A stretch of DNA of 59,493 bases from Alphaproteobacteria bacterium (GTDB lineage Bacteria > Pseudomonadota > Alphaproteobacteria > Micropepsales > Micropepsaceae): positions 1-59,493 of the forward strand of contig DAIDUA010000034.1 of the NCBI GenBank assembly GCA_027456965.1. Reading direction: 5' to 3'. A program made the position numbers and the translations under genes. This document shows positions 24,495-52,881 of the stretch, in pieces; within the stretch, counting starts at the first letter, position 1; the number at the start of each line of letters is the position of its first letter. The notes under the pieces are model-generated. The model saw only the letters and a list, made by a program, of their open reading frames with translations, did no database searches and had not been told where the DNA came from.

Positions 24495-24523
24495 AATACC
24501 CTGAGTGCGGCCGCGGAGTGTCC

Positions 24524-28063: not shown

Positions 28064-28084
28064 AAAGCGCGCCGCGGCGGTCGG

Positions 28085-28984: not shown

Positions 28985-29467
28985 AATGTAATACCGATAT
29001 TAGAATGTGGGACTAAAGGACGTAGATGCTGCGTCCTTGAGACGAAATCCGTCATGACAGTGCATCGGCGACCTTTTCACGAATTGTGCCTATCCCGAGA
29101 GTCTCACCAGAGCATATAGGACATTCTGTCCATAACTACAGCGTACGCAATCGAAGACGAGAATAGTCCTATGTCCCGTCGCAATATACGACATACCGGC
29201 GACTTTGTCGTTCATGCAAAGGTGGCGGTTCGTCGCGATCGGGGACGCCGACGCCCCGAAGACCAAATTGTGGGCCACCGTCCTAAATACCGTGGAATTG
29301 TAGAGCGCGGTCGGCCTCTTAGCCGATTCGCGGGTGTGCGGCCATGATCGCCAACGGCCGTGGCTGCAACATCCGGGCGGACCGTCTTTGCGGCCCGCAT
29401 AGTCGTACATGCGAACGATAAACAACTCGAAGCGGCGCGCGCAGATGACAGGGAATGGGAGGAAAGC

Positions 29468-30544: not shown

Positions 30545-30566
30545 ACCCGTCCGAAGGAGAAATTCG

Positions 30567-31955
30567 ATGAAAATACCTCATGTCCTATTCATAGCAGCCA
30601 TTGTTGTCGCCCTGAGCGCCCCGCCCGCAGCCCAAGCCGCGCCGGCCTCAACCGCCGCGCCGGCGCACTGGATTGCTGCATGGTATTCGCCGCCGTTCCC
30701 GCCAACTTCAGTTCTGACATGGAATGATGTGCGGATATTCGACCACCAGACAGTCCGCCAGGTTCTCCGCCTCGAAGCGGGCGGCGATCGACTGCGCGTG
30801 CGGCTGACGAACGAATTGGGACTATCACCCGTCAAGATCGGTTCCGTGCATATCGCATTGTCCTCGCCCAACGGCGTAACCGAACCCGAGACCGATCACC
30901 AAATCACCTTCGACGGCCGTCCGGACGCCATCATTCCAACCGGGCAGGCATTGGTCAGCGACCCTATAAATATGAAAACGCATGCGTTCGACGAGGTCGC
31001 TATCTCGATTTACTATCCCGGCAGGCTCGCGCCGGCCGCGCATTTGACGTTGGTCAAAATCTCCGGTCACGGCGACCATGGCTCGGAAGCAATACTGCCC
31101 AGCTGGACGATCGCAAGAGCGCCGGCGCTGGCGTCCGGCGTCGACGTCGAAACCGACAAACCGCGCCACGTCATCGTCGCCTTCGGCGATTCGATCACCG
31201 AAGGAGCGGGCGTGACACCGGGCCTCAACTTGGCCTGGCCCGAACAACTGGCGCTACGCCTTTCCAAGGACCCAGCGACCGAGAATTTGGTCGTCGTCAA
31301 TTCGGGGATCAGCGGCAATCGCCTGCTGCACGATGGCGCCGGTCCAAAGGCGCTGGATCGCTTTGAACGCGACGCACTGGATATCCCAGGGGTCACCGAC
31401 ATCATCTTGCTCGAAGGCATCAACGATATCGGCTGGGCCTATTCGCCCGACGGCGATACCGGCCCTCTCAGCGTCGACGACATTATCGGCGCGTACAAAG
31501 AACTCATCGCCCGCGCCCACGCCCGCGGCCTGAAGATCTTTGGCGGCACCATGACGCCGTACGAAGGTGCCGTCTATTACAGCCCGAAAGGCGAAGAGGT
31601 CCGCGAAGCTGTCAACAAGTGGATTCGTACCAGCGGCGCCTTTGACGGCGTTATCGATTTCGATTCCGCGCTACGCGACCCGGCGCATCCATTGCGCTTC
31701 ATCGGTGCTTATCAGTTCGGCGACAACCTGCATCCGAACGATGCCGGCAACACCGCGATGGCCGAGGCGATAGACTTGAAGCAGTTCGCCGCTCCCAGCG
31801 GAGCGACGGCCCCAATGGTGGACAACCCCGCCGATACAAAGCCAACGCCGACGAAGCCGACATACGCCTGCCGCGTCCACAAAGACAGAACCGGTCACAT
31901 GCGGCGGATTTGCCGACGGCTGAAGCCTGCCGCGGCAGCAAAAACACAGCACTGA
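30567..31955 (+). CDS. Secreted SGNH/GDSL hydrolase (putative carbohydrate acetylesterase)
   Basis: Signal peptide; blocks FGDSITEG, NSGISGN, EGINDIG, DNLHPN. Confidence 0.88.
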   Translation: MKIPHVLFIAAIVVALSAPPAAQAAPASTAAPAHWIAAWYSPPFPPTSVLTWNDVRIFDHQTVRQVLRLEAGGDRLRVRLTNELGLSPVKIGSVHIALSSPNGVTEPETDHQITFDGRPDAIIPTGQALVSDPINMKTHAFDEVAISIYYPGRLAPAAHLTLVKISGHGDHGSEAILPSWTIARAPALASGVDVETDKPRHVIVAFGDSITEGAGVTPGLNLAWPEQLALRLSKDPATENLVVVNSGISGNRLLHDGAGPKALDRFERDALDIPGVTDIILLEGINDIGWAYSPDGDTGPLSVDDIIGAYKELIARAHARGLKIFGGTMTPYEGAVYYSPKGEEVREAVNKWIRTSGAFDGVIDFDSALRDPAHPLRFIGAYQFGDNLHPNDAGNTAMAEAIDLKQFAAPSGATAPMVDNPADTKPTPTKPTYACRVHKDRTGHMRRICRRLKPAAAAKTQH

Positions 31956-32008
31956 TTCGTCTTCACGATAGCCGTTTTAACAACAGCCGTTTTGAAAGTG
32001 AGCAGCCC

Positions 32009-35000
32009 ATGCTGAAGATCGATCGTCGAGACTTTATGATAGCAGCAGGTTTGATCGCGGCGGCCCCCGGGCCGGCACGCGCGCGGGCAAACGGGTTGCA
32101 GGCTACGGCGCTTAAGACGGAGTTCATCGACCGACCGCTTGGGCTCGACACGCTTAAGCCGCGATTCTCGTGGCAACTGCAGTCCGGACGGCGAGGCGCG
32201 AAGCAATCGGCCTATCGCATCACGGCGGCATCGTCGGAGACAAAGCTGAAAGCGGGCGTGGCGGATATCTGGGACAGCGGACGCGTCAAATCGGACCGCT
32301 GTTTCGAGGTCCCGTATGAAGGCCGACCGCTGCAGTCGGCCGAACGCGCTTGGTGGCGGGTTCAAATCTGGGACGAGACAGGCCGCCGGTCCGCCCATAG
32401 CGACGCCAGTTGGTTTGAAATGGGCCTATTAGCTCCATCCGATTGGACGGGAGACTGGCTGATTGCGCAGGAGCCCGAAGAAGCCGCAGACCGTGCGGCC
32501 GGGCTGCATTGGATATGGGACGGCAAGCCACTTGATCCACGGCCGCGGAAATTCCGCTTCCGTTTTTCTCTACCGGCGGACCCCGCCGACGCCAAGCTTC
32601 TTCTCTCGGCCAAGGACAATCTGGTCGGCGTTTGGACAAACGGTCGACCGGCGCAGTTGCCCGGCCAAGTGTTCTGGGGAACGATGCAGACGATTCCGGT
32701 TTCTCTCGTCGGCGGCGACAACGTCATTTGCGTCGAGGCGACGGCGCTGACGGACGGCTTCCTACCGCCCGACGGCGGCGCCGTGGCAGCGCTCCTGCGC
32801 GTAACGTCAAGGGACGGCCATGTAACGCGGTTTACGTCAGGTCCGGACTGGCGCGTTTCGAATCTAGATGCCTCGGACTGGACCACGACGTCGTTCGACG
32901 ACAGCGCCTGGCAGCATTCGCAGTCGTCGCATGCGCACGCATGGTGCGAACCCTGGCCGGCAGCCGACGCGATGCTCTTTCGCCGTTCTTTCTCAGTCGC
33001 CAAGCCGATAGCACGCGCACGTCTGTATGCGACAGCGCTGGGGGCCTACGAAGCCTATCTGAATGGCCGCCGCGTCGGAGACGCACGTCTTGCGCCGGAG
33101 ATTGCGGTTGCGAGCGATCACGTATTTTACCAAACCTACGACGTCACGGATTTTCTGCAAAGCAGCGAGAATGTGATCGGACTTCTGATCGGCGACGGCT
33201 GGTATGCCAGCGCTTTCGCGTGGCGCAACGAGCGCTTTTCGCTCGGCAACGGCCCGCGACGTTTCCTGACGCGGCTTGTGCTCGATTACCAGGACGGCAG
33301 CCAAGACATCGTCACCACCGACGGGAATTGGCGCACGACGCCATCCGCCATACGGACGTCGGAAATCTACAATGGCGAGACCTACGACGCGCGGTTGGAG
33401 CAGTCGACTTGGAACAGAGCAGATTTTGATGACAGTCATTGGCGCCCAGTAGACACCGGTGAAAAGCCGCTCGTCCGCCTTATACCTCAGGTGAGTCCGC
33501 CGATCCGCGAAATGCAGGCACTTTCCGCCAAGAGCGTGACCGAACCGCGCCCCGGTACGTTCGTCCTCGACTTCGGGCAGAACTTCGCAGGCTGGTGCCG
33601 CTTGCGCGCGAAGGGCACCACCGGCACCGCCATTACTCTGCGTCACGCGGAGATCCTCAAGCCCTCCGGCGAGATCGACACAAGCAATCTGCGCGGCGCC
33701 AAGGCAACGGACACGTATGTGCTTCGCGGCGATCCGGCTGGCGAGGCTTACGAACCGCACTTCACCTATCACGGCTTTCGCTATGTGGAAGTCACAGGTT
33801 ACCCGGGCCGACCCGACGCAAAGTCCCTCGATGGCGTCGTCGTCCACACCGACGCCCCTGCGACCGGCACGTTCACCGTCGAAAATGCTCTTGTCCAGCA
33901 TATCTGGCACAACGCACTGTGGAGCCAACGTTCGAATTTCTTCGGCGTGCCGACTGACTGTCCACAGCGCGACGAACGCATGGGTTGGATGGGTGACATT
34001 CAGGTTTTCCTAGATGCCGCTGCTTTCAATATGGACGTCGATGCCTTCATCCGACGCTTCCTGGCCGAAGTGCGCGCCGGACAGACGCCCGACGGCGCTT
34101 TCCCGGTTGTCACGCCGCAGCCGCGTTCTTTCCCGCCGATGCTGACTGCAGGATGGAGCGAAGCCGGCGTTATCCTGCCGTGGACGCTCTACCGCCGTTA
34201 CGGCGATATGCGGGTCATCGAGGACAATTGGGCCGCGATGTCCGCCTGGATCGCTTTTGTCTCCGACGCAAACCCCGACTTTCTGTGGCGCAACAAGCGC
34301 GGCCTGGACCTCGGCGACTGGCTGTCGGTGGATGCCAAGCAGCCGTGGGATGAAACCACACCTCGGATGCTCGTGGCGACTGCCTATTGGGCCTACGTCG
34401 CCAGCCTTATGGCCGAGATGGCCAAGGCAATCGGACTGGTCGGCGACGCCACTCGTTACACAGAGATGCGGGGAAAGATCGGTCAGGCCTTCGCTTCGAC
34501 TTTCGTGCGGCCGGATGGCACGATCGGCAACGGCAGCCAGACAAGTTACGTGCTGGCACTGCGTTTCGGGCTAGTACCCGAACATTTGCGCGCCGCGGCC
34601 GGCGACCATCTCGCGGCCGGCATCCGGGCGCGTGGCACGAAGCTTTCAACCGGATTCTTGGGAACGCCCTACCTACTGGACGCGCTCAGCGACACCGGGC
34701 ACGCCGATGTTGCCGTGTCGCTGCTGCTGCAGACGGAGTATCCGTCCTGGGGTTACATGATACGCAAGGGCGCGACCACGATGTGGGAGCGCTGGAACGG
34801 CGACGTCGGCGACGTCTCAATGAATTCTTACAATCACTACGCGTTTGGCGCGGTAGTGGGCTTTCTGTACCGACGGCTAGCCGGGATCAGTCCGGCGGCA
34901 CCGGGCTTCAGGCGGATTGACGTAAATCCGATCTTCGACACACGCGTGGGCCGTGTGCACGCGGAGTATCAATCCTGCCTCGGGCGCATCACGACCGACG

Positions 35001-35206
35001 TGAGCGGCGACGCTGCAGGCCTTTCCCGCCTTCGCCTCTCCGTTCCTGCCAATGCCATCGCACGAATCCAGCTGCCGGCACGCAGCACCGTTTGGCATGA
35101 AAGCGGCCGCCTCCTGGATCGCCGCCCCGATCTGAAGGTCCTCGACAGGAACACGTCGTTGTTGACCGTCGAGGTAGGTTCCGGAGACTACGATTTCGGT
35201 GCCTGA
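32009..35206 (+). CDS. GH78 alpha-L-rhamnosidase (Tat signal)
   Basis: DRRDFM Tat motif; ARLYATALG.Y, DFGQNFAG, FTYHGFRYVE, PTDCPQRDERMGWMGD, GDWL, GATTMWERW, MNS.NHYAFG. Confidence 0.93.
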   Translation: MLKIDRRDFMIAAGLIAAAPGPARARANGLQATALKTEFIDRPLGLDTLKPRFSWQLQSGRRGAKQSAYRITAASSETKLKAGVADIWDSGRVKSDRCFEVPYEGRPLQSAERAWWRVQIWDETGRRSAHSDASWFEMGLLAPSDWTGDWLIAQEPEEAADRAAGLHWIWDGKPLDPRPRKFRFRFSLPADPADAKLLLSAKDNLVGVWTNGRPAQLPGQVFWGTMQTIPVSLVGGDNVICVEATALTDGFLPPDGGAVAALLRVTSRDGHVTRFTSGPDWRVSNLDASDWTTTSFDDSAWQHSQSSHAHAWCEPWPAADAMLFRRSFSVAKPIARARLYATALGAYEAYLNGRRVGDARLAPEIAVASDHVFYQTYDVTDFLQSSENVIGLLIGDGWYASAFAWRNERFSLGNGPRRFLTRLVLDYQDGSQDIVTTDGNWRTTPSAIRTSEIYNGETYDARLEQSTWNRADFDDSHWRPVDTGEKPLVRLIPQVSPPIREMQALSAKSVTEPRPGTFVLDFGQNFAGWCRLRAKGTTGTAITLRHAEILKPSGEIDTSNLRGAKATDTYVLRGDPAGEAYEPHFTYHGFRYVEVTGYPGRPDAKSLDGVVVHTDAPATGTFTVENALVQHIWHNALWSQRSNFFGVPTDCPQRDERMGWMGDIQVFLDAAAFNMDVDAFIRRFLAEVRAGQTPDGAFPVVTPQPRSFPPMLTAGWSEAGVILPWTLYRRYGDMRVIEDNWAAMSAWIAFVSDANPDFLWRNKRGLDLGDWLSVDAKQPWDETTPRMLVATAYWAYVASLMAEMAKAIGLVGDATRYTEMRGKIGQAFASTFVRPDGTIGNGSQTSYVLALRFGLVPEHLRAAAGDHLAAGIRARGTKLSTGFLGTPYLLDALSDTGHADVAVSLLLQTEYPSWGYMIRKGATTMWERWNGDVGDVSMNSYNHYAFGAVVGFLYRRLAGISPAAPGFRRIDVNPIFDTRVGRVHAEYQSCLGRITTDVSGDAAGLSRLRLSVPANAIARIQLPARSTVWHESGRLLDRRPDLKVLDRNTSLLTVEVGSGDYDFGA

Positions 35207-35364: not shown

Positions 35365-36036
35365 ATGGCAAAAAAGCTCGCGCTGCTGCACACCTCACCA
35401 ATGCTCACGCCATTGTTCGGCACACTTTGTGCGCAATGGATGCCGGAGACGCGCATCTTTCACATGGTCGACGAAAGTCTGATCAAGAACACGATCGAAA
35501 CCGGCCATCTGCAGAATACCACGATCCGGCGGCTGATCTGGATGATAGGGTCCGGCTTCGAAGCTGGCGCTGATGCGGTGCTAGTCACCTGTTCGTCGAT
35601 CGGGCCAGGCGTTGACGTCGCCCGGAAGATATTCGATCGCCCGGTCATTCGAGTCGACGAGGCCATGGCGGCGAAGGCTGTGGGCCTCGGAACGCGTATC
35701 GGCGTTGTTGCGACGTTGCGGACGACGCTGGACCCGACCATCGCTCTAGTCCATCGCAAAGCCGCGGAAGCTGGCAGGCAAATCGAGATTACCGACTGCC
35801 TCTGCGACGGCGCGTTCGAAGCCGTCATCGCCGGCGACACGGCGACGCACGACCGGATCGTCGCCGATGCCCTCACGAACAAAATGCGCGGCGTCGACGT
35901 CATCGTACTTGCCCAGGCATCCATGGCACGTCTCGCCGGGGCGCTTGCTCCGGGCGCCGTGTCCGCGCCGATCCTCTCGAGCCCGGAACTCGGCGTAAAG
36001 CACGTTCGCGACGTTCTGCACGGGGGCGTCGCTTGA
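35365..36036 (+). CDS. Asp/Glu/hydantoin racemase-superfamily protein, function unknown
   Basis: LALLHTS, HMVDESL, ADAVLVTCSSIG, RVDE.MA, GVVATL.TTL.PT, DVIVLAQASMA; second catalytic Cys position is Gln. Confidence 0.8.
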   Translation: MAKKLALLHTSPMLTPLFGTLCAQWMPETRIFHMVDESLIKNTIETGHLQNTTIRRLIWMIGSGFEAGADAVLVTCSSIGPGVDVARKIFDRPVIRVDEAMAAKAVGLGTRIGVVATLRTTLDPTIALVHRKAAEAGRQIEITDCLCDGAFEAVIAGDTATHDRIVADALTNKMRGVDVIVLAQASMARLAGALAPGAVSAPILSSPELGVKHVRDVLHGGVA

Positions 36037-37301
36037 AGAAGCGCTACATCGTCGTCGGCCTGCTCAGCGTTGTCTCCATCATCACCTTTCTCGACCGCAT
36101 GGCCATCGCGGTCGCCGGACCGCAGATCCAGCAGGACTTACATATTAGCCCTGACAAGTGGGGCTGGGTGCTCAGCGCTTACGTCATCGCCTACGGCATC
36201 TTCGAAATCCCTTCCGGCGCCATGGGCGACAAGAACGGCCATCGGCGGGAGTTGACGCGCATCGCCGTCTGGTGGTCAGCATTCACGGCACTGACCGGAT
36301 GGTGCCAGAACTTCCTTCAACTGGCTGCGACGCGATTTCTGTTAGGCATCGGCGCGGCTGGCGCTTATCCAAATTCCGCCGGCGTGTTGTGGCGCTGGTT
36401 ACCCGCACACGAACGCGCGCGCGGACAAGGCGCCATCTGGGCCGCCAGCCGGCTCGGCGGTGCGCTGGCGCCTTTGCTGCTGGTGCCACTGGAGGAATAT
36501 CTCGGCTGGCGTGCGGTATTCTGGGCATTGGCCGGCGTCGGATTGGTCTGGGCCATCTTCTGGCACCGCTGGTATCACGATCAACCTGCGCAGCAGCCCG
36601 GCATTACCCCCGAAGAAGTGGGCGCGATCGGTAAGCAAGGTGACGACGGGCTGCATCGCTCGCCGCCCTGGAAGAAACTGCTGCGGCTTCGGCAGCTTTG
36701 GCTCATCACGGTCGCCTACGGATTCTACGCCTGGGGCAGTTGGTTCTATTTCAACTGGTTTCCAACCTGGATGCTCCATGCCGGCCATTTCACGATGGCG
36801 CAAATGGGCGTTTATGCCTCATTCCCCTTCCTGCTCGGCATCGGGAGCAACATTCTGGGCGGCATGCTGTGCGACGCCCTCGCCAAACGGATCGGCGTCC
36901 AATATGCCTACCGCATCATCACATCCACCTGCCTTGTCGTGGTCAGCGTGCTGCTGCTCCTGATGAGTATGTCGAGCGGCCACATCGCCATCGTCGTACT
37001 GGCAAGTGCGAGTTTCGCGGTAATGGACCTGATGTTGCCGGCGGCATGGGCGATGTGCATGAGCATCGGAGGCCAATTCGGCGGCGTCGCGACCGGCATC
37101 ATGAATACTTCAGGCCAACTCGGCGGACTATTCTGCACCCTCGCATTCGGTTACATCGTGAGCGCGACCGGAAATTACGATCTGCCGGTCCGCGTCGTGG
37201 CCTTGATGGTGTTCGTCGCTGCGCTGATATTTTCGCAGATCAATTGCACGAACGGGCTTACAACCGACGAAGAGCGGGCATCTGTTCTGCAGACGGCTTA
37301 A
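36033..37301 (+). CDS. MFS transporter, anion:cation symporter (sugar-acid, GudP-like) family
   Basis: ITFLDR..I.VA, FEIPSG..GD..G.R, RFLLG.G.AG.YP, GIMNT.GQLGG; ~12 hydrophobic segments; TTG start overlaps the upstream TGA. Confidence 0.88.
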   Translation: MKKRYIVVGLLSVVSIITFLDRMAIAVAGPQIQQDLHISPDKWGWVLSAYVIAYGIFEIPSGAMGDKNGHRRELTRIAVWWSAFTALTGWCQNFLQLAATRFLLGIGAAGAYPNSAGVLWRWLPAHERARGQGAIWAASRLGGALAPLLLVPLEEYLGWRAVFWALAGVGLVWAIFWHRWYHDQPAQQPGITPEEVGAIGKQGDDGLHRSPPWKKLLRLRQLWLITVAYGFYAWGSWFYFNWFPTWMLHAGHFTMAQMGVYASFPFLLGIGSNILGGMLCDALAKRIGVQYAYRIITSTCLVVVSVLLLLMSMSSGHIAIVVLASASFAVMDLMLPAAWAMCMSIGGQFGGVATGIMNTSGQLGGLFCTLAFGYIVSATGNYDLPVRVVALMVFVAALIFSQINCTNGLTTDEERASVLQTA

Positions 37302-38612
37302 TTATCCGGCCCCAAGAAGCACTCTTTCGAAGAAGTCCTCCGAGCCGATCTGGCCGCCCTTGAGCACAAGCTCAAGACCGTCGAGCGCTGCGTCATCCGA
37401 ATGCCCCCGGCAAAGAGGTGCGCCGGGTTGCAGGTTGCCCGCCCAAGTGAGCGCGTGAAGGCCAAGCTGCGCGACCGCGTGGCTCGATGTATCACCACCA
37501 GCAAGCAGAACCCGCCTTACGCCGCTGCGTAGGATGACGTTACGCAGCAACCCGCCGACTTTCCGGCCAAGCGCGTCACCGAATGACGGCGTTTCCGCGG
37601 CGAGCGGCCCGAGCGCACTGTAAAGCACGACCTTCCCGCTCTTTCGCAACATCGCGATCGCTGCACCGCTGTACTGTTCCATCGCCGCATCTGCCGCATG
37701 AATCAGATGTTGCGGATCGAGAACAATATTCTCGAAGCCATGTGCAGCGGCCCAGCGGATTTGGCCTGCCGTCACGGGCGAACAACTCCCGCTGACGACC
37801 AACAGGGAGTCCGCTGCTGACGGTCGAACCGACGGAGCGCTGTCCGGGATCAAGCCGTCCGCCTGCCATTGCGATATCAACGCCTGCGTCAGACCTGAAC
37901 TTCCAACCGCAAACAGATGTTTGCGCCGGGCCCCTAACGACAGCACGCGTCCGATTTCGTTCAGCATCCGTCGATCGATACCGTCGAACAATATGGCTTT
38001 CCGTCCCTCTGCGAGTTGGCCAGCAAGAACGCCCTCGGATTCGCCCGCTTGAAGGGTCTGCAAATCGATCAACCCGATGGGCATTGCCGTTTGCAACGCG
38101 AGGTGGCGGCGCAAGTCAGCTTCGTGCATGGGCGTGACAGGATGACAGCTCATCGTCGGATGGCGATCGATCCGATAGATATTCTCGCCAGCAGCCGCAA
38201 ACAGATTTCCGAAGACAACATAACGGCGAAGATGCGGCGCGCCCACGACGATCGGCACGAACTCCGGCGCGAAGACCGACAGCCCGATTTCCATCGCGCG
38301 CCCGATAGAGCCGCGCGATGGCGCGCTGTCGAAGGTGGAGCAGACCTTATAATGCGTCACCGGAGCATCGAATGATCTGAGCAGCGCAAATATCCGCGGC
38401 AAGTTCTCATCCATCCAAGCGGGTGTGCGGCTGCGGCTGTCGCCGGCAATGCCAATCACTTGGCAATCCGAGAAGCGTTGGAGATGTTCTGCCGATGGCT
38501 CGCCGAGGAACAGTACGCTGCGCAACCCTGCACCCGCAACATTCTCCAGCACATCGGTCGAGCCTGTGAAATCGTCGCCGTAAAAGGAGTAGATCAATGC
38601 GCTCTGCGGCAT
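37302..38612 (-). CDS. Four-carbon acid sugar kinase family (DUF1537), OiaK-like
   Basis: YGDDFTGSTD, HYKVCSTFDS, R.DRHPTM..HPVTPM.EADL, SGSCS.VT..Q, AGGDTS, LKGGQ.G. Confidence 0.9.
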   Translation of the reverse strand: MPQSALIYSFYGDDFTGSTDVLENVAGAGLRSVLFLGEPSAEHLQRFSDCQVIGIAGDSRSRTPAWMDENLPRIFALLRSFDAPVTHYKVCSTFDSAPSRGSIGRAMEIGLSVFAPEFVPIVVGAPHLRRYVVFGNLFAAAGENIYRIDRHPTMSCHPVTPMHEADLRRHLALQTAMPIGLIDLQTLQAGESEGVLAGQLAEGRKAILFDGIDRRMLNEIGRVLSLGARRKHLFAVGSSGLTQALISQWQADGLIPDSAPSVRPSAADSLLVVSGSCSPVTAGQIRWAAAHGFENIVLDPQHLIHAADAAMEQYSGAAIAMLRKSGKVVLYSALGPLAAETPSFGDALGRKVGGLLRNVILRSGVRRVLLAGGDTSSHAVAQLGLHALTWAGNLQPGAPLCRGHSDDAALDGLELVLKGGQIGSEDFFERVLLGAG

Positions 38613-38619
38613 GATCGCA

Positions 38620-39891
38620 TCACGCGGCAAAGCGTTCGAGCGCCGACCGCAAGTCGCCGTGGGACTTCGCGTAGTCGGCAAGAGGGATGCCAGCAACCGC
38701 GGCATCCCAGGCCTCGCGCAAGCTGCGCACCCCGGCGGCAATACCTTTTGGATGTGCCATGATGCCGCCGCCGCAAGCGAAGATCAGGTCCGTCGAACCG
38801 AGGGCGCGGAAGGTGTCGGCCGCCTGCCGTACGGTCTGACCCGACGAAAACACCGGCATGACCTCGCAACCCCGCCCGGCCGCATCGAACATCGGCGTCA
38901 GACATTCCTTCGCGGACGCTATGACGGAAGCATCGTCTTCGCAGAACTTGTTGCGCAGGCCATTGACATGCGTGTGATCTATCCCCGCCAGACGCCAGAA
39001 TTTCTGGAAGGCGACGAAGCTCATGCCGATAGCCGGCGAGCGCCCGAACATACCCCAGCCGTTGCGATGCCCATGGATCGCAAGTCGCGAATGCTTCCGC
39101 AGCACTTTGAGCGCCGGCAGGCCGATGCTGTTCATACTGATCATGATGCATGTGCCGCCTTCGCGAGCCACCAGATCGTGCCGATAGAGCATTTCATCCA
39201 CTTCGCCGGTGATATTGGCCGCGTACATCACCTTCTTGCCCGTACGCTCGGCGTGCACTCGCAGGACGCGCATGACGGCCGGTACACGCGACGCGAAGGG
39301 GCAGTGCGGCCCGTCGGCCTGCAACTCGTCATCCTTGATGAAGTCTATCCCCGCCTCTGCGAGAATGCGCACGCGTTCCGCCGTCTCTTCCGGAGAAAGC
39401 CCGACGCTTGGCTTGATGATGGTCCCCAGCAAGACACCCTTGGGAACACCGCACAAACGGCGCGTGCCGACGACGCCGAACTGCGGCCCCTGATACGCAT
39501 CGAGAAACGCCGACGGCAATTTCACGTCAAGCAATTTCAGACCCGAGAACGCCTTCAACTCCCAGAGATTGCCCGCAATGGTGGCGAGCAGATTGGGAAG
39601 AGATGGCCCCATATTGTCCAGCGACCAAGAGAACGTCACTTCTGCCGTATGTCTTTGACCGTCCCAGGCCTTCGGCAACCCGGAGCCGGGCAGCGAAGGC
39701 TCATCAGCATTGGCGAGTTCAACGATCCTTTCGACACGTGCGGCGCAACGTGAGCGTAACGCGTCCGTTTCTCCAGGGACGGAAACAAAAGTACCCGTGG
39801 ATTGTTCGCCAGCGATCGAGGCTGCGGCAAGCTCCAGAGGATAGGCCGTTTCGATCCAATACCGCGCTTCAATCCTGTTCGTCATGGTCAC
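38620..39891 (-). CDS. RuBisCO-like protein (form IV), OiaX/OiaT-like
   Basis: AGEQSTGTF, GTIIKPSVGL, carbamylation motif GIDFIKDDEL, HGHRNG, PVFSSGQ, GGGIMAHP.G; no small subunit or PRK nearby. Confidence 0.92.
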   Translation of the reverse strand: MTMTNRIEARYWIETAYPLELAAASIAGEQSTGTFVSVPGETDALRSRCAARVERIVELANADEPSLPGSGLPKAWDGQRHTAEVTFSWSLDNMGPSLPNLLATIAGNLWELKAFSGLKLLDVKLPSAFLDAYQGPQFGVVGTRRLCGVPKGVLLGTIIKPSVGLSPEETAERVRILAEAGIDFIKDDELQADGPHCPFASRVPAVMRVLRVHAERTGKKVMYAANITGEVDEMLYRHDLVAREGGTCIMISMNSIGLPALKVLRKHSRLAIHGHRNGWGMFGRSPAIGMSFVAFQKFWRLAGIDHTHVNGLRNKFCEDDASVIASAKECLTPMFDAAGRGCEVMPVFSSGQTVRQAADTFRALGSTDLIFACGGGIMAHPKGIAAGVRSLREAWDAAVAGIPLADYAKSHGDLRSALERFAA

Positions 39892-41696
39892 GTCTGCTGA
39901 AAATACGTGTCGTAATCTTCATCTTGCACTTGATAGAACGGCACAAAGACAAGGTCCCTACTCGACTCGGACTGCGTGTAGGTCTGCTGCGATCGCGACA
40001 GGCGCGACAATCCCAAGGGATTGGGCAACACCGTCATTGCCTGCTCCGACGTCTGATTGAGCGAGACATACATCACCGGTCCCTTCATTAGGGCAACCGT
40101 ATCCTTATGAAGTTCGTCGATCGGTTCCGTGCGAAAGACCTGCGGCAACCGCAGTTCGATATGGTCACCGGTCCTCCAGGTACGATGAATCGCTACAAAG
40201 CTTCCTGGCCTGGCAGCTACTTCGAACGGCCGCCCGTTCACGAGGATATTTGGTGAACCTTCGACCCATCCCGGGACTCGCAGATGGAGCGTGAACGCCA
40301 CCGCTGAACGGGTTGTCAGACGCAAGACGATCTTGTCATCCGCCGGATAATTCGTTTCTTGAACCAGCCGTACCGAGGTCCCCTGCACGTCCCATCGCAC
40401 CTCCGATGGCGTGAACATGTTTACATAAAGATTACCTGCCGAATGAAAATAGAGATTGAGAACATAATCTGCCACGCCCTGCACCAATGTTCCGGAACAA
40501 CACGGCCACTTTTGCGGATAGAATTCCTTGCGCGCATCCGCACTGTATGTGGAGTAATATGGATACCCGCCGTCACCGTCTGGGTACTTCGTACCAAGAA
40601 TGGTGTTGTAGACGACCCGTTCGAGTCCGTCGCCATAGCGCGCGTCGCCGGTGACACGCAGCAGATAACGGGCGAATTTCATGCTCGCATAACTGCCGCA
40701 GGGCGTCTCAAAATGCGCTTTGGTGTTGAACAGGCTATCGTAGAGCGCGCCTAGATGCGGGCTGACAAGCATTTCGTCGGGCCCCCAGCCGCCAGACGCG
40801 TAACGCTGCAACTCCAGAAAGCGCCATGCGTTCACGAGAGCCGCCTTGTACTTTCTGTCGCCGAGCGTCAGATATGCTTTGCCCGCCGAGCTCAGGGCCA
40901 TAACGTGACTGTAGGCATGTTTGCCCGGCAAGACGTCCTCGCCTCGCGCCAGCGGGTCGAAGTATTCCTCATCCAGAAGGTACTTCACTGCCATATCGTG
41001 GAACTGGCGATTCCCAGTTATTTCCGAAGCGATAAAGAGGTTCTCTGGAAGAATGTAAGTCTCGTCGTAAGGTGGGTCTTTTTTGCCGATACGGTCGCGG
41101 CTTACCGGCGAAATAAACGGCTTGGCGCCGTCGATGACGCGCGGCAGAAGGGTCTTGGCTTTATCGACACCGCTCAGCCGGTAGGCGTCGATGAGGCCTA
41201 TCTCATGCTTGTCTAGAATGTATGCCGGCCATACTTTTTCCGCGTTTGGCCCGGCGTACGGATTGGGATTGCGGTCAAGCGCAGCGCCGAACCCGTCCAC
41301 CAGCGCGTGGACCTTTTCGTGGCAGGCTGCGTCGCCTGTGCAGCTGCCAAGACGCGCCAGACCGGAGACGTATTGTCCCAATGAGTGCCCCGGGACAAAT
41401 CCATCTGTGTCGTACCAGCCCCCCATATCCTTGCCCGGTGCATCGAGCTCGGCATGCTGGCGATAGACTTTCAGCAGACGATTATTGTCGAGCGAAAGAT
41501 AATGCGCGTGGATTCGGTCGTAGTGACCCTTCAACGGGCCGCCGGTCAATCGCACATCGCGATAGGCGAATTCATGCATCACCTCCGTAGATGAACTCGC
41601 ATCGCCCGCAAGGCTTTGAAGAGAGAGAGCTCTGCCAAGGGCCGTCGCATAAGCGGCGTTTTTCAAAAGCAGGCGGCGCGAAAAGTCCAGCGACAT
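39888..41696 (-). CDS. GH127/GH146-like (DUF1680) cysteine glycosidase (Tat signal)
   Basis: SRRLLLK Tat motif; RLL..YR....L.APG..MGGW, GH.LGQY.S.LA, HAYSH, ETPC.SY, ER..YN.ILG, WPCC.GT; stop overlaps the RLP start. Confidence 0.85.
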   Translation of the reverse strand: MSLDFSRRLLLKNAAYATALGRALSLQSLAGDASSSTEVMHEFAYRDVRLTGGPLKGHYDRIHAHYLSLDNNRLLKVYRQHAELDAPGKDMGGWYDTDGFVPGHSLGQYVSGLARLGSCTGDAACHEKVHALVDGFGAALDRNPNPYAGPNAEKVWPAYILDKHEIGLIDAYRLSGVDKAKTLLPRVIDGAKPFISPVSRDRIGKKDPPYDETYILPENLFIASEITGNRQFHDMAVKYLLDEEYFDPLARGEDVLPGKHAYSHVMALSSAGKAYLTLGDRKYKAALVNAWRFLELQRYASGGWGPDEMLVSPHLGALYDSLFNTKAHFETPCGSYASMKFARYLLRVTGDARYGDGLERVVYNTILGTKYPDGDGGYPYYSTYSADARKEFYPQKWPCCSGTLVQGVADYVLNLYFHSAGNLYVNMFTPSEVRWDVQGTSVRLVQETNYPADDKIVLRLTTRSAVAFTLHLRVPGWVEGSPNILVNGRPFEVAARPGSFVAIHRTWRTGDHIELRLPQVFRTEPIDELHKDTVALMKGPVMYVSLNQTSEQAMTVLPNPLGLSRLSRSQQTYTQSESSRDLVFVPFYQVQDEDYDTYFQQT

Positions 41697-41833: not shown

Positions 41834-43024
41834 TCATGTGCGGCGCTCCAGGCCGAATTCCTTGCGGATTTTCGCCGTGTGCTCTCCGACCTTCGGCGCC
41901 GCGACCGCCGTCGCGGACCGCTGGCCATTAATGCGAATCGGGCTGCGCGTGGCCGTCAATCGCGTACCGTCGTTTCCAACAATCGTATTGAGCATATCGA
42001 GGCGCCGGAACGCCTCGCTGACAAGCAGATCCGACCAACCAAGCACCGGAGCGCACCAGACGCCGGCAGGCTGAAGGAGCGACAACCATGCCGCCGTCGG
42101 CTTCTGCAGGAGTCTATCGGCGATCATGCGCTTGATCTCGTCTCGCCGCGCAAAGGAGGCCTGCGGATTACGCACCATCTGCGCCAAGCCCGGTAGATCG
42201 ATAAGACCCGCGAGATGCTCTAGCGAGACCATGGCCAAGGCGATATGGCCATTCTGCGTCTCATAGACGCCATAGGGTGCGGCCAAATAAGCATGCGCAT
42301 TGTTGAACGCAGAACGCCTGGGCGGGCGCCCCTTATCGTTCAGATGAGTCGATAAAACTTCGAATTGAAAGTCGACAATTGCCTCCAAGAGGCTCGTCTG
42401 AACATGCGCGCCTTCACCGGTGACGCCGCGACGCACCAACGCAGCCAGAATGCCCTCCAGCACAATGTGGCCTGCCAGCATGTCGGCGATCGACAAACCA
42501 ACGGGAACCGGGCCATCCGCGTCGCTGCCATTGAGCCACATTACGCCAGACAGCGCCTGGGCCAACAAGTCCTGCCCAGGCCAATCCGCCCAAGGGCCAG
42601 TTTCCCCGTAGCCGGATATGCTCGCGTACACAACGCGCGGATTGACACTGTGCGCGGCCATGTGATCGAGTCCGAGCCGTTCAGCGACGCCGGGCCGAAA
42701 ATTCTGGATCACCACGTCGGCACGAGCAAAAAGCTGCAAGGCCGCCTCCACGCCTTCTTGCGTCTTCAGATCGGCAGCAAAACTTTCCTTATTGCGATTA
42801 ATTGCGTGAAAGAGTGTCGAGTCGCCGCCCATATCGGTATTCGTCAGATAAAGCTGACGACAGATATCCCCCGTTCCCGGCCGTTCGATCTTGATCACGC
42901 GCGCGCCGAGATCGCCCAGACGTAGCGCCGCGGACGGCCCGGATAGAAATTGTGCCATGTCGATGACGAGCAATCCGGAAAGTGGGCGGATATCCGGTGG
43001 AGAATTGCGGCCTGTTTCGGTCAT
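41834..43024 (-). CDS. Family III CoA-transferase (CaiB/BaiF)
   Basis: PLSG..VID..QFL.GP, LGDLGA.VIKIERP..GD, NRNK.S...DLK, NFRPG, SISGYG..GP, catalytic Asp in SIADMLAG. Confidence 0.92.
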   Translation of the reverse strand: MTETGRNSPPDIRPLSGLLVIDMAQFLSGPSAALRLGDLGARVIKIERPGTGDICRQLYLTNTDMGGDSTLFHAINRNKESFAADLKTQEGVEAALQLFARADVVIQNFRPGVAERLGLDHMAAHSVNPRVVYASISGYGETGPWADWPGQDLLAQALSGVMWLNGSDADGPVPVGLSIADMLAGHIVLEGILAALVRRGVTGEGAHVQTSLLEAIVDFQFEVLSTHLNDKGRPPRRSAFNNAHAYLAAPYGVYETQNGHIALAMVSLEHLAGLIDLPGLAQMVRNPQASFARRDEIKRMIADRLLQKPTAAWLSLLQPAGVWCAPVLGWSDLLVSEAFRRLDMLNTIVGNDGTRLTATRSPIRINGQRSATAVAAPKVGEHTAKIRKEFGLERRT

Positions 43025-44166
43025 GACGGCAGTGTTTCACGAAAGAGATCGTTCAAGCGCGCTATCAGCGTCCGTGGTGAAGCGTTGATTTGAAGCGCGG
43101 CATTGAGTTCCTGCGATGCGACGTCTTGAAATCGCATATATCCGTCGTGACGCGGGCGAACCCATGCTCCCTCCAACGTCGCACGGGTTGCCCGATAAAA
43201 GTCCAAGACGGGACCATTCACCTCGGAGTCGTTCCATGCCACATCATGGCCAGGTTGCCCACCCGCAGCGGCGTAGGGACCGCGCTGTGTATCCGCACCT
43301 GCGAGCCAAAACGCGAAGTCCATTGCGGCATCGGCGAACGACGAGTTGGAGGACACGGCAATTCCAGTTCCGCCAAGCGCCGAGCCGCGGCGTCCGACTT
43401 TGTCCTCTACGACAAGAATATCGGCAAAGGCGATGCGATGCGGGCGGAATCCGGCTTTTGCATAGCTTACGTAACCATAAATCAACGGCGCACACGCGAC
43501 CGCCGATCCGTCCTGTGCCATTTCGTCGAAGACGGCTATCGGATCCTGTGAAAAAGCCGCGGGGTCGAGGCATGAACATAGTTCGCGCATCATCGCGAAC
43601 GCGCGAGCGCCGGTTTCGGCGTCGATGTGGTCCAGCCCCTCGACCCGGCATGATCGCCCCAATTGCCCGCACAGCGTATAGAACGACATCAGCGAATGTG
43701 GCGGCCGCAATGGCCAGCCTACACATCCCTTTTCTGCGAGCAGGACAATCTCCCGCCAGGTTCTAAGCGGTGCGGCCAGCTTATCGGGTCGCCATGCCTG
43801 GACTTGCGATGCGGCATCGATCGGCAGCGCCCATTGGCGGCCAGCCCAGCGATAACTCTCAAAGGACGGCCCGATCGACGCTTTTTGCAGCGCGTAAAGC
43901 GCATCTTGCCGCTCTTCCTGATCCATAGGCAGCAGGCAATGCTCATCAGTCACGCGCCCCATATGCGGGTGATCGACGACAATAAGGTCGTACTGCTCCG
44001 CAAGCCGTTTTATCGGAAAAGACTCGAAGTCCTGCAGGGAGCGGCGGTCCCATCGGACTTCAACGCCCGATTGCGCACGCCAGATTTTCGAGCAGGCAAG
44101 CAACGGATCGAAACCGCGTGGGTGGTCCCATGTCATGCCCCGCAGCGTGGCCACAGCTTTCGTCAT
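43021..44166 (-). CDS. Family 1 solute-binding-fold protein lacking a signal peptide
   Basis: LRGMTWDHPRG, YDLIVVDHP, WALPIDAA.Q, LGGTGIAVS; begins directly with a beta-strand; GAGGA RBS; stop overlaps the CoA-transferase start. Confidence 0.8.
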   Translation of the reverse strand: MTKAVATLRGMTWDHPRGFDPLLACSKIWRAQSGVEVRWDRRSLQDFESFPIKRLAEQYDLIVVDHPHMGRVTDEHCLLPMDQEERQDALYALQKASIGPSFESYRWAGRQWALPIDAASQVQAWRPDKLAAPLRTWREIVLLAEKGCVGWPLRPPHSLMSFYTLCGQLGRSCRVEGLDHIDAETGARAFAMMRELCSCLDPAAFSQDPIAVFDEMAQDGSAVACAPLIYGYVSYAKAGFRPHRIAFADILVVEDKVGRRGSALGGTGIAVSSNSSFADAAMDFAFWLAGADTQRGPYAAAGGQPGHDVAWNDSEVNGPVLDFYRATRATLEGAWVRPRHDGYMRFQDVASQELNAALQINASPRTLIARLNDLFRETLPS

Positions 44167-44279
44167 GCTCGTCCTCAACTGCGCAACGACCGATGTCCGC
44201 GCGCGACCGACCGGCGACGCCCGCGGCACAGGGGCGGGAGAAAACAATTTGTTGACACCGTTTGTCAACAAACATAGCG

Positions 44280-44291
44280 TTCATATATAAA
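44280..44291. promoter_or_regulatory. Near-palindrome TTCATATATAAA in a divergent promoter, candidate operator for the second IclR
   Basis: AT-rich patch between the divergent SBP-like and CoA-transferase genes; one mismatch from TTCATATATGAA. Confidence 0.35.
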
Positions 44292-44315
44292 TACAATAAG
44301 AAATGGGAAACGAGG

Positions 44316-45524
44316 ATGAGGGCACAGCGCGAAGACCGCGCCCCAGCAGCATCGTCCGCACGACAGCCTCTCGAAGGGCTGATTGTGCTGGATTTCAGCC
44401 AATTTCTGGCCGGGCCTTCCTGCGCATTGCGGCTGGCAGATCTTGGCGCTGACGTCATAAAGATCGAACGGCCGTCCGGCGGGGACGCCTGCCGCCAACT
44501 TTTCATCGCGGATCAATCGTTGGACGGAACGAGCGCCCTCTTCCACACGATCAACCGCAATAAAAGAAGTTTTGCCGCGGATCTGAAAAATCCGCAGGAT
44601 TTGGCGCGCGTCAAAGCCCTCATCGCCCAAGCGGATGTGATGATCCACAATTTCCGACCGGGTGTGATGGAACGCCTCGGGCTCGGGTTCGATGTCCTGG
44701 AAACAGCCAACCCAAGGCTGATCTACGCGGCGATTACCGGGTTTGGATCAGACGGCCCATGGCGCGACAAACCAGGGCAGGATCTTCTCGTCCAAGCACT
44801 ATCTGGCATAACTTGGCTGTCAGGAAATGGCTCCCAAGGGCCTGTCCCGGTAGGCATGTCGATAACGGACATGGCGGCCGGCGCCCATCTCTGCCAAGGC
44901 ATCTTGGCCATGCTCGTTCGCCGTGCCGCAACAGGGCGTGGCGGACGTGTTGAAATCAGTCTGTTCGAGTCTGCCGTCGACCTGCAATTTGAACAGTTTT
45001 CCGCGTTCTTGAATAGTCAACGGATCCAGCCGACCCGCGGAGAAATCGCCGGCGCCAATGTGTATCTCGGCGCGCCGTACGGCGTTTATGCAACCGCGGA
45101 TGGTCATATTGCACTTGCAATGGTCGCCATCCCGCGTCTGCGGCAGCTTTTGGGTTGTGACGAGTTGGCCGCCTACGACGACCCGGCAACATGGTTTCGG
45201 GATCGCGATGCGATCAAGGCGATCATTGCGACACACCTTATGAAAAACGACACCGCGCACTGGCTCAGGCTCCTCGATCCCGCCGACGTATGGGCTGCGC
45301 AGGTGCTCGACTGGCCTAGTCTGCTTCAGCAGGACGGCTACGCAGCCCTCCAACTGACGCAGGAGGTACGCAATTCCCAGGGGAATGAAATGCTGACCAC
45401 GCGTTGTCCGATACGCATAGACGGCAGCATTCTCGGCTCGAGTCGTGGCGCGCCCCTTCTTGGAGCAGATACCGAGGAGATCATTCGCGCCTTCAATCTC
45501 ACGGGCGGAGGGGCGGATATATGA
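44316..45524 (+). CDS. Family III CoA-transferase (CaiB/BaiF), second paralogue
   Basis: [37 protein letters not shown]...DLK, NFRPG, catalytic Asp in SITDMAAG. Confidence 0.92.
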
Positions 45525-45985
45525 TCGTTCCGCAATTTTTTGAGGATTATGAAATCGGATTCAGCCGCACGACTTTCGGCCGCACGGTTACAGAGGCCGA
45601 CATCGTGACGCACGCTGGTCAGACAGGCGACTTTTTCCCGCACCACATGGATGCCGAGTGGTGCGCAAAACAAGACTTCAAGCGCCGCATGGCGCATGGC
45701 ACGCTGATCTTGAGCATCGGCATTGGCATGACCGCGTCGACGATAAATCCGCACGCGATGTCTTATGGCTATGACCGCTTGCGTTTCATTCGGCCGGTCT
45801 TCATCGACGACACGATAACAACCGTTGCGACAATATCCGATAAACGCGATCACCAGAGGCGGCAAACGCACGGCATCGTCATAGAAGACATCCTGATAAC
45901 CAACCAGACACAGGAGCCGGTGCTGGCGTGTCAGCATCTCTATCTCGTCGAACGCAAACATACGGCCACGCCCACGAAGGCTTGA
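45521..45985 (+). CDS. MaoC-family (hot-dog fold) dehydratase
   Basis: [14 protein letters not shown]...A..TGDF.P.H.D, AHG.L, YG.D.LRF..PVF..DT; ATG overlaps the upstream stop. Confidence 0.9.
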
Positions 45986-46026
45986 TGCGCGGCACGATAC
46001 ACTAGAAGGCGGCAGGAGGCATCTCG

Positions 46027-46989
46027 ATGGCACGGATGGCGGCAAGTGTTGCAGCGGCGTATCTCATCAGCGTGCTGGCGCTGTCTCCTGCATATGCGGG
46101 CAAGATAACGGTGGGATTGTCGAGCGTCGGGCTCAGTTATCCCTTCGCCGCCGCCATCGCGAAGGGATTTCGGGACGCCGCCACTAGGGTCGGTGCGAAC
46201 GCCATTGTGCTCGATGCCCAAGGCAGTGTGCAGAAGCAGGCAGACGACATTCAGGATTTGATCGGCGAGAAGGTCAACGGCATCGTATTGATGCCACTCG
46301 ATTCCGTCGTGGCGAAAAGCTGGGTGAATCGCGCTGTAGCCGCGGGTATTCCCGTGGTGGCCGTCGCTTCTCAAATCGGCAATCCGAGAACACGCCCGCT
46401 GCGCGACGTCTATCCCAAACTCACCGCCTTGGTGACACAGGACGAGGTGGCGGCGGGAGTTGAGGCGGGTCGCGTCGCACTCACACTACTCCCGAGAGGG
46501 AAGCCGGCAGAAATTGCCATCATCGAGGGCGCCGCCGGCTTCCCGGAAGTACTCCAGCGCGCGCAGGGCTTCAAACAAGCGCTCGACACCGCCCATGTCC
46601 AATACCGCGTTGTGGCATCCCAGCCCGGCGACTGGACACCAGAAAAGGCCGATGCGGCATGCCAGAACATTCTCGCCGCACACCCGAATGTCGATCTCTT
46701 CTTCAACGAATCCGATGATATGGCAGTCGGCTGTGCGCGGGCCGTTCGCGCCGCCGGTTCGCACGCCAAGCTGATCGGGATCGGCGGTTCGAAGCTGGCG
46801 ATTGCGGCCATCAAAGCCGGTCTGGTCGACGGAACCGTCTGCTACAGGCCGGAGACGTTGGGCGCGATGGCCTTTAACGCACTTTATTCCCACATCACGC
46901 AGAAAAAGAAGGCGCCGGCCGCGTTTCTCACCTACCGATCGCCAGGCGTCACTCGCGCAGACGTCAACCAATGTGTCGGACAATGGTGA
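46027..46989 (+). CDS. Sugar ABC transporter substrate-binding protein (RbsB/CUT2 type)
   Basis: Signal peptide ending PAYA; DAQGS..KQ..DI.DLI, R..GF, QPGDW, D.MA.G. Confidence 0.9.
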   Translation: MARMAASVAAAYLISVLALSPAYAGKITVGLSSVGLSYPFAAAIAKGFRDAATRVGANAIVLDAQGSVQKQADDIQDLIGEKVNGIVLMPLDSVVAKSWVNRAVAAGIPVVAVASQIGNPRTRPLRDVYPKLTALVTQDEVAAGVEAGRVALTLLPRGKPAEIAIIEGAAGFPEVLQRAQGFKQALDTAHVQYRVVASQPGDWTPEKADAACQNILAAHPNVDLFFNESDDMAVGCARAVRAAGSHAKLIGIGGSKLAIAAIKAGLVDGTVCYRPETLGAMAFNALYSHITQKKKAPAAFLTYRSPGVTRADVNQCVGQW

Positions 46990-47002
46990 CAGCGAAGTGT
47001 CG

Positions 47003-50582: not shown

Positions 50583-50585
50583 GCC

Positions 50586-52837: not shown

Positions 52838-52881
52838 TTGGCCGAATTGGCATAGGCACCCACTGAGGTTTAGGAGTGATG

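Follow-up and report, generated by a model that had tools for sequence, protein, structure and literature searches.

Five neighbouring genes in a 59,493-nucleotide stretch of alphaproteobacterial DNA (hereafter the window, meaning the whole stretch that was analysed) form a conserved cassette within a pectin-digesting gene cluster, and the likely role of this cassette is to free aceric acid and to degrade it with a RuBisCO-like protein (RLP). Aceric acid is a rare sugar of RG-II whose release by the enzyme BT1003 is known; no catabolic route for it was found in the searchable literature, with subscription journals outside the reach of the search. Given the location of the cassette in an RG-II side-chain-B locus and the homology of its products, we put the probability at roughly 0.7 that aceric acid is the substrate and that the route runs, overall, through isomerisation, phosphorylation and cleavage by the RLP. 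The central claim of the original prediction, that the substrate is aceric acid and not apiose, is strongly supported by gene context as a prediction.

All five open reading frames are intact and lie completely within the window, which is matched without indels by contigs from public DNA runs. On the forward strand, a racemase-fold gene (35365-36036; PF01177, 71.5 bits) overlaps by 4 bp the gene of an MFS transporter (36033-37301; PF07690), whose best NCBIfam match is TIGR00893 (D-galactonate transporter type; 215 bits, below its cut-off). On the reverse strand, a glycosidase (39888-41696; PF07944 and PF20736) is followed by the RLP (38620-39891; PF00016 and PF02788) and a DUF1537 kinase (37302-38612; PF07005 and PF17042). 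The tight coupling and convergence noticed at the outset can be read directly from the junctions: the glycosidase stop overlaps the GTG start of the RLP gene by 4 bp, 7 bp separate the RLP stop from the kinase ATG, and the stop codons of the MFS and kinase genes abut with zero gap, the two gene groups converging on each other. A scan for promoters and terminators gave signal at chance level. Directly upstream of the racemase-fold gene lies a GH78 alpha-L-rhamnosidase (31910-35206, forward strand), found at the same position in eight of the metagenome loci described below, and a side-chain-B toolkit occupies 13733-31955 (GH137-like, TonB receptor, GH78, GH29, GH42, GH106, RhaT, GDSL esterase).

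To assess how widely the arrangement is conserved, we examined 80 metagenome loci that were fetched with a racemase-fold profile, and so picked by similarity to it and including many kin; 63 hold the transporter, 46 the kinase and 32 the RLP. Among the 32 RLP-bearing loci, the window's glycosidase clade occurs in 23, a true BT1003-type hydrolase in two and ApnO in five; collapsed at 80% identity, either hydrolase is present in 15 of 18 lineages and ApnO in 4 of 18. Of the 26 loci that contain both a GH-P glycosidase and the RLP, 23 have the glycosidase immediately upstream of the RLP gene, an adjacency that exceeds chance. The glycosidase clade itself was matched in 2 of 400 Pseudomonadota genomes (G1592 and G1545), both 100% complete and both with the whole cassette; neither has the ApnO domain or a BT1003-type enzyme over cut-off. 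Hence the co-occurrence proposed originally, of RLP/kinase pairs lacking ApnO with the racemase-fold gene, the glycosidase and RG-II CAZymes, is borne out both in the metagenome loci and in two complete genomes. True BT1003 orthologues adjoin the same operon in L077, where GH127, RLP, kinase and racemase genes are contiguous, and in L082 (998.5 and 1137 bits with the aceric acid hydrolase model NF049879, cut-off 950). A Rufibacter plasmid, the only one above 60% identity among 236 plasmid records that match the L082 hydrolase (1189 bits), also carries RLP, kinase, racemase and a BASS transporter, and the ApnO domain is absent from it. Broader surveys yielded little. Searches of 150 order-level relatives gave no match to the racemase-fold gene; 13 of 400 Alphaproteobacteria have distant members only, with no RLP within 16-20 kb; among Acidobacteriota, sets of 151 and 201 genomes gave two matches each, one of which (G717) is a distant member that has no RLP close by; the BT1003-type model had no match in 401 Actinomycetota genomes; and a contig scan with one protein as query gave two loci.

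In the pathway that we propose, the Cys nucleophile of the glycosidase would cleave AceA-alpha1,3-Rha in the periplasm, and the MFS transporter would take up the aceric acid. The racemase-fold protein would then most likely shift a proton from C2 to C1 via an enediol, because aceric acid has no primary alcohol on which a DUF1537 kinase could act and no dehydrogenase is encoded in the cassette. The product would be a 2-substituted 3-oxo-tetronate, a methyl homologue of 3-oxo-isoapionate. The original wording, an exact methyl homologue, holds for the connectivity; judging from the sugar name and from KARI stereochemistry, the branch carbon of the aceric ketose may be opposite in hand to that of 3-oxo-isoapionate, which counts against the aceric acid reading. 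The kinase would phosphorylate the new CH2OH, and the RLP would remove CO2 to leave an enediolate; in an OiaT-type continuation, CO2 would be added back at the neighbouring carbon and hydrolysis would yield 3-phosphoglycerate and L-lactate.

The racemase-fold protein is the predicted aldose-ketose isomerase; the Asp/Glu racemase superfamily is not known to include a sugar isomerase. Its model (pLDDT 94.4) has the fold of that superfamily (1jfl, Z 21.9, rmsd 2.4, 208 residues aligned), and it has a single Cys, C76, with Q184 aligned to the second Cys of 3qvj in place of the two-Cys pair of Asp/Glu racemases. C76, Q184 and H162 are constant in 52 of 52 kinase-linked members; C76 and Q184 are also found in members from unrelated contexts (14 of 15 and 15 of 15, respectively), which counts against the aceric acid reading. 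The kinase is a predicted OiaK-like DUF1537 four-carbon acid-sugar kinase that would act on the 2-ketose of aceric acid, scoring 461.6 bits with OiaK against 191.7 with OtnK and 74.8 with DtnK. It falls under the OiaK equivalog cut-off (NF042436, 700 bits), as does an ApnO-linked control kinase at 575, and the model is therefore narrow. We predict the transporter, an anion:cation symporter-type MFS protein, to be the aceric acid importer; a BASS transporter takes its place in four loci.

By its sequence, we class the RLP as a form IV RuBisCO-like protein of the OiaX/OiaT group and predict that it performs the C-C cleavage step. It lies below the RuBisCO cut-offs of TIGR03326 and NF003252, its best PDB match is 3nwr, and it keeps K160, K186-D-D-E189 (which we take to be the carbamate/Mg site), H275-R276 and K315; with the OiaX model NF042437 it scores 460 bits (cut-off 700; Rhizobium etli control 784). 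In trees with long branches at L091 and L094, ApnO-linked RLPs that have no LerI/DerI form the sister group of the window's RLP clade. Racemase-linked RLPs do not form one clade, which counts against the aceric acid reading. Of 31 racemase-linked RLPs, 30 have Gly at position 274, where all 5 ApnO-only RLPs have Ala or Cys; we keep this position as a hint of specificity only, because it is variable in four loci.

Whether this RLP moves the carboxyl group or simply removes it separates two versions of the same aceric acid route. In the second version, the RLP only decarboxylates the aceric-derived ketose to 5-deoxy-L-xylulose (or -ribulose) 1-phosphate; splitting of this product by an aldolase such as RhaD would give DHAP and acetaldehyde. 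The original prediction included this branch and pointed to a spare RhaD. The window does hold a stand-alone RhaD (378 bits, cut-off 170), but a second rha cluster likewise has one, the window's RhaD belongs to the rhamnose operon, and none of the 80 homologous loci carries RhaD; TPI/RpiB is likewise found in 0 of 80. The RLPs of L004 and L082 group with R. etli OiaX (93/92, long branch) and have part of its motifs in common, whereas the window RLP is 62% identical to an ApnO-linked RLP without LerI/DerI against 46% to R. etli OiaX. A class I aldolase occurs in a parallel module of two relatives (G083 and G045) that have the close glycosidase clade and no RLP or racemase gene. In their similar locus this module comprises VOC, an OiaK-like kinase, PdxA, a DhnA-type aldolase and TRAP, once more a kinase unaccompanied by a sugar dehydrogenase acting before it, which counts for the aceric acid reading; the minimal operons RLP-kinase-racemase-BASS and TRAP-VOC-RLP-kinase are without an aldolase. 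Plain decarboxylation is therefore the lesser version, with perhaps one chance in a few, and we favour the 3-phosphoglycerate and L-lactate branch, also foreseen originally, by about two to one. The window's FMN L-lactate dehydrogenase LldD (4182-5393, reverse strand; NF033901, 584.5 bits, cut-off 550) could use the L-lactate, and rhamnose also requires LldD.

Alternatively, the kinase and RLP could be ordinary OiaK/OiaT-type apionate enzymes, fed by an ApnO encoded elsewhere or by another source of 3-oxo-isoapionate, with the racemase in an accessory role and the glycosidase taking no part. OiaK and OiaX are indeed their best NCBIfam matches, and the sister position of the RLP clade agrees with this. 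ApnO, which the original prediction found lacking and which is indeed lacking in the window, occurs in 7 of 80 loci, in some within the cassette, so that 3-oxo-isoapionate is probably still a substrate of these enzymes of the cassette, kinase and RLP alike. Moreover, glcDEF-type genes adjoin the cassette in two genomes (G1592 and G1545) and two metagenome loci, which counts against the aceric acid reading; OiaT forms glycolate in the apionate route. The window's own genome gave no tblastn match to ApnO (3 references), ApsD (1), ApnL (1), DUF2291 or GH140-type enzymes (2) and none to PF16896, the ApnO domain, but it is 67% complete and an ApnO may therefore be missed. Against this explanation, PF16896 is absent from G1592 (one contig, 100%) and G1545 (100%), with the positive control detected, as well as from G247 and two cassette-bearing plasmids; ApsD and ApnL occur in 0 of 80 loci; and in two lineages far from each other the operon has a true aceric acid hydrolase beside it. 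In addition, five related metagenome loci, G1545 and a Croceibacterium plasmid (transketolase C-half at 61%) have a split transketolase and an FGGY kinase next to the cassette, so that apiose has an alternative route at hand, which counts for aceric acid. Conversely, the glycosidase was not found in the fetched stretches of five ApnO loci that were found via the RLP and are without the racemase gene. We consider an apionate role for the cassette improbable.

With 119 bits against the NF049879 cut-off of 950, the glycosidase falls outside the BT1003 type, and by sequence and fold it belongs to a GH146-leaning GH-P clade and is not a BT1003 orthologue (best match GH146 BT0349, TM 0.80, 24% identity; BT1003, TM 0.70, 17% identity). 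It has the Cys3-Glu Zn site and acid/base Glu of clan GH-P: E308, E330, C333, C399 and C400, aligned to BT0349 and Bll3HypBA1, are unchanged in 70 of 70 sequences. Its N-terminus is twin-arginine-like. All characterised GH146 enzymes are arabinofuranosidases, and this, like the 17% identity to BT1003, counts against aceric acid. The original caveat was thus right about the family, while its suggestion of a plain arabinofuranosidase is disfavoured by context. The terminal beta-L-Araf is predicted to have its own GH137-like enzyme (13733-14905, matching the N-terminal part of NF049877), of a type that the window shares with 21 of the 80 loci, and this counts for an aceric acid role. A paralogue clade (about 42% identity) has araBAD as its neighbour on another contig and in four of nine regions from relatives, and no cassette genes are found in the nine. 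The Asn630-equivalent of the -1 subsite is Tyr262; we dropped it as an aceric acid marker because the arabinose-linked paralogue shares it. We predict an aceric acid hydrolase that replaces BT1003. That the glycosidase is instead a beta-L-arabinofuranosidase, with kinase, RLP and racemase handling another RG-II sugar acid (e.g. from Dha, Kdo or a 2-O-methyl sugar), fits its GH146-like fold, the match of W94 and E212 to Bll3HypBA1 W429 and E578 (numbering offset inferred), the fact that no pathway is known for 2-O-Me-fucose either, and the Kdo-type sialidase-family genes in 2 of 80 loci. We nevertheless consider it improbable: the Araf cap is covered by GH137-like enzymes, the paralogue linked to arabinose genes forms its own clade, a BT1003-type enzyme over cut-off occurs in 0 of 5 clade-bearing genomes despite their enzymes for neighbouring linkages, and handling those other sugars would call for dehydrogenases, which are missing from the cassette.

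The complete pathway would comprise three unrecorded activities: a second clade of aceric acid hydrolases that evolved independently, on the GH146 side of clan GH-P, the first aldose-ketose isomerase of the Asp/Glu racemase superfamily, and a carboxyl-moving RLP that yields 3-phosphoglycerate and L-lactate with no carbon lost. The DUF1537 kinase would be the constant part, which bacteria combine with either a racemase-fold or a VOC isomerase and with either an RLP or aldolase/PdxA. In this full form the proposal is tentative, and we hold it doubtful that every part is correct. A 2026 paper describes the degradation of branched sugars other than apiose as little known (PMC13753588), and according to a preprint the AceA-Rha-Api substrate can be obtained with a BT1003 mutant (bioRxiv 10.64898/2026.03.13.711244). 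Four soluble enzymes suffice to make the question testable. If true, the aceric acid reading would add a new RLP substrate, a new racemase-fold chemistry and a second enzyme for an RG-II linkage, and it would correct the labels 'OiaK/OiaX' and 'beta-L-arabinofuranosidase' in many soil, peat and freshwater genomes.

The closest known systems are the oxidative D-apionate routes, reportedly set out by Carter et al. in 2018. Routes 1 and 2 pass through ApnO and OiaK and then through either OiaX (a decarboxylase) or OiaT (a transcarboxylase/hydrolase) (PMC6302742, PMC13753588). The window cassette has in common with them a same-subfamily pair of DUF1537 kinase and RLP, the logic of a branched 3-oxo acid and an acid-sugar transporter, but it is without ApnO, ApsD, ApnL, LerI and DerI and instead has a one-Cys racemase-fold gene and a GH-P glycosidase amid RG-II side-chain-B CAZymes. 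With BT1003 (GH127, Bacteroides thetaiotaomicron, PDB 5MQO) the glycosidase shares the clan GH-P fold, the Cys3-Glu site and the same predicted linkage, whereas it is nearer GH146. GH146 BT0349 (5OPJ/8QF8) and Bll3HypBA1 (8K7X/8K7Y) are its best structural matches, with catalytic and Zn residues kept, yet the window enzyme has about 600 aa and differs in Tyr262, in a conserved basic loop (R200/R202/K206) and in its RG-II context. Similarly, the racemase-fold protein keeps the fold and first Cys of the Asp/Glu/hydantoin racemases (1JFL, 3QVJ), whereas Gln replaces the second Cys and identity is 16-22%. Finally, the D-hamamelose pathway of Ochrobactrum anthropi (Kim et al. 2018, via PMC8914248 and PMC10176493) also has an RLP working on a branched plant-sugar acid; its sugar is different, and the accessible parts of these two sources report no link to a glycosidase or racemase-fold gene of the kind that the window cassette displays.

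The five open reading frames of the original prediction are all intact in the window and lie where it placed them: a glycosidase (39888-41696, minus strand), a RuBisCO-like protein (RLP; 38620-39891, minus), a DUF1537 kinase (37302-38612, minus), an MFS transporter (36033-37301, plus) and a racemase-fold gene (35365-36036, plus). The tight coupling claimed for the first three is borne out, with a 4-bp overlap between the glycosidase stop and the RLP start and 7 bp from the RLP stop to the kinase start. Read from the sequence, the racemase-fold and MFS genes also overlap by 4 bp, and the stop codons of the MFS and kinase genes abut. Mine-drainage DNA runs of two studies contain contigs that cover this stretch, none with an indel, and one of the runs may derive from the source sample. 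The stretch is contig C34 of a 2.36 Mb genome that is 67% complete and likely belongs to a Rhizomicrobium-type alphaproteobacterium, judging by its one-family order and a named homologue at 59%. Upstream of the cassette lie a GH137-like enzyme, two GH78 enzymes, one each of GH29, GH42 and GH106, a GDSL esterase and RhaT, as well as a rhamnose operon that includes LldD. Aceric acid is a component of side chain B of RG-II, and we take this enzyme set to match the linkages of that side chain. Two rhamnose utilisation clusters, one at 4182-12312 and the other on contig C141 of the same genome, each encode RhaD both as a stand-alone protein and fused to a dehydrogenase. A stand-alone GlcD/D-lactate-dehydrogenase-like FAD oxidase (12324-13712, minus) forms an apparent operon with a TonB receptor and the GH137-like gene; the fetched loci contain no close homologue of it.

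The cassette is real and conserved. The racemase-fold profile matched 571 metagenome loci, of which we examined the best 80. A transporter is encoded in 63 of these, the kinase in 46 and the RLP in 32; 24 have the window's glycosidase clade, 7 have ApnO, and 2 have a hydrolase of the type of BT1003 (the GH127 aceric acid hydrolase of B. thetaiotaomicron). ApsD, ApnL, RhaD and TPI/RpiB were each absent from all 80. CAZymes of these loci comprise GH42 (31), GH78 (29), GH137 (21), GH29 (17) and GH140-type enzymes (8). Many of the 80 are short; of the 35 that reach 12 kb, 26 carry the RLP and three have no partner gene at all. Within the 32 RLP loci, the glycosidase clade occurs in 23, the BT1003 type in 2 and ApnO in 5, and in 23/26 loci with both genes the hydrolase gene immediately precedes that of the RLP. 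These counts are not independent trials, because selection went by the racemase-fold gene and many of the loci are related; collapsing them at 80% racemase identity leaves 18 lineages, 15 with either hydrolase and four with ApnO.

Other observations are less tied to that selection. Two loci encode hydrolases that exceed the aceric acid hydrolase cut-off of 950 (L082, 1137; L077, 998.5), and L077 has the gene order hydrolase-RLP-kinase-racemase. When the L082 hydrolase was compared with 236 plasmid records, identity above 60% was found in a Rufibacter plasmid alone, which also bears RLP-kinase-racemase-BASS among pectin CAZymes and has no ApnO domain. A glycosidase-profile search of 400 Pseudomonadota genomes gave two matches, both in 100% complete genomes with the whole cassette and without the ApnO domain PF16896. 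None of five clade-bearing genomes contains a BT1003-type enzyme over the cut-off. Croceibacterium sp. TMG7-5b and Rufibacter tibetensis are cultured bearers of the cassette, as would be Granulicella sp. WH15 if its locus is complete.

The glycosidase model (pLDDT 85.8) is nearest to the GH146 enzyme BT0349 (TM 0.80, 24% identity) and more remote from BT1003 (TM 0.70, 17%). All of the 70 homologues compared keep its acid/base Glu and Cys3-Glu site, and its N-terminus resembles a twin-arginine signal. No carboxylate-binding residue could be demonstrated in it, which we count against an aceric acid substrate. Across 150 genomes of the window's order, the close clade (60-61% identity) occurs in two and a 39-47% paralogue in ten, one genome (G083) having both. 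The window's own genome has such a paralogue (41-43%) at C72:564-10745, beside araB-, araA- and araD-like genes and sodium:solute symporters, as named from ORF starts rather than a family scan; arabinose genes likewise adjoin it in four of nine fetched regions of relatives. The C72 paralogue is likely a beta-L-arabinofuranosidase of the window enzyme's unclassified GH-P group. The two close-clade genomes, G083 and G045 (96-100% complete), lack the RLP, the racemase-fold gene and ApnO, and thus the glycosidase does not always accompany the cassette.

These two genomes have instead a parallel module in an RG-II locus of similar kind (L146:9335-19999 and L150:1-11000). It consists of TRAP, VOC, PdxA-like dehydrogenase, OiaK-like kinase, DeoR, DhnA-type aldolase and a 747-aa protein that has no annotation; close by lie an FGGY kinase, an isomerase and a split transketolase. 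The module is possibly a second aceric acid route. The 747-aa protein (L146:17075-19315) has no Pfam match, has homologues at 51-55% identity in RG-II loci L070, L074, L167 and L170, and may be an unclassified CAZyme. Minimal LacI-TRAP-VOC-RLP-kinase operons occur in Azospirillum, Neorhizobium, Alloyangia and Paracoccus (L094, L162, L163, L164); their fetched stretches contain no glycosidase, and their bearers are possible scavengers of the free acid. Two haloarchaeal plasmids (L092, L176) also hold the RLP and kinase, accompanied by VOC and a 268-aa gene that has no annotation; a racemase-fold gene is present on one of them, and ApnO, pyruvate kinase and enolase are on the other.

Beside the cassette lies a cluster (41834-53613) of two CaiB CoA-transferases, a MaoC dehydratase, three solute-binding proteins, a sugar ABC transporter, IclR, Gfo/Idh/MocA and SDR genes. 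It recurs by RG-II loci (a Croceibacterium plasmid, L068 and the two complete cassette carriers, G1592 and G1545), MaoC and Gfo are present on the Rufibacter plasmid too, and the cluster is also frequent on rhizobial plasmids. We speculate that it serves 2-O-methyl-fucose/xylose catabolism, for which bioRxiv 10.64898/2026.03.13.711244 reports no confirmed pathway.

Modelled at pLDDT 94.4, the racemase-fold protein resembles aspartate racemase (Z 21.9) but has Gln184 where the second catalytic Cys would stand. Such a one-base active site would be more apt for a 1,2-proton shift than for racemisation. The one-Cys pattern runs through the whole family and also occurs in rhizobial peptide-transport contexts, which counts against the aceric acid assignment; elsewhere a VOC protein fills the same operon slot. 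Aceric acid (3-C-carboxy-5-deoxy-L-xylose) lacks a primary alcohol. Tetronate-type acids are phosphorylated at C4 by DUF1537 kinases, as summarised in PMC13753588. Since the cassette also has no conserved dehydrogenase, an aldose-ketose step would come first, yielding a 2-substituted 3-oxo-tetronate. The kinase product would then undergo transcarboxylation and hydrolysis by the RLP to 3-phosphoglycerate and L-lactate, the more economical ending because the cassette has no aldolase; the window encodes an LldD that could use this predicted L-lactate. The OiaT-type ending is predicted indirectly, from sister-clade position and gene context.

The kinase scores 461.6 bits against OiaK, 191.7 against OtnK and 74.8 against DtnK, and the RLP 460 bits against OiaX, both below the OiaK and OiaX cut-offs of 700. 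The RLP keeps K160, K186-D-D-E189, H275-R276 and K315. Its clade (29 rows, 98/92) has as sister group a set of ApnO-linked RLPs from loci that show no LerI/DerI; the window RLP is 62% identical to one of these, against 46% to R. etli OiaX. Racemase-linked RLPs split rather than forming a single clade, a further point against aceric acid. An apionate role for the kinase and RLP also fits: ApnO lies in or beside the cassette in the seven loci of the best 80, which we read as dual use, and glcDEF-type genes flank it in four, although we assume that these may instead serve an adjoining dehydratase/SDR/FAA sugar-acid route. We found no catabolic pathway for aceric acid in the searchable full-text literature. 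The cassette is at present the best candidate for such catabolism, a reading to which we give a probability of roughly 70%. Its hydrolase clade is distinct from BT1003, and the cassette belongs with the RLP/DUF1537 pathways for branched acid sugars as a variant, not as a member of the apionate routes.
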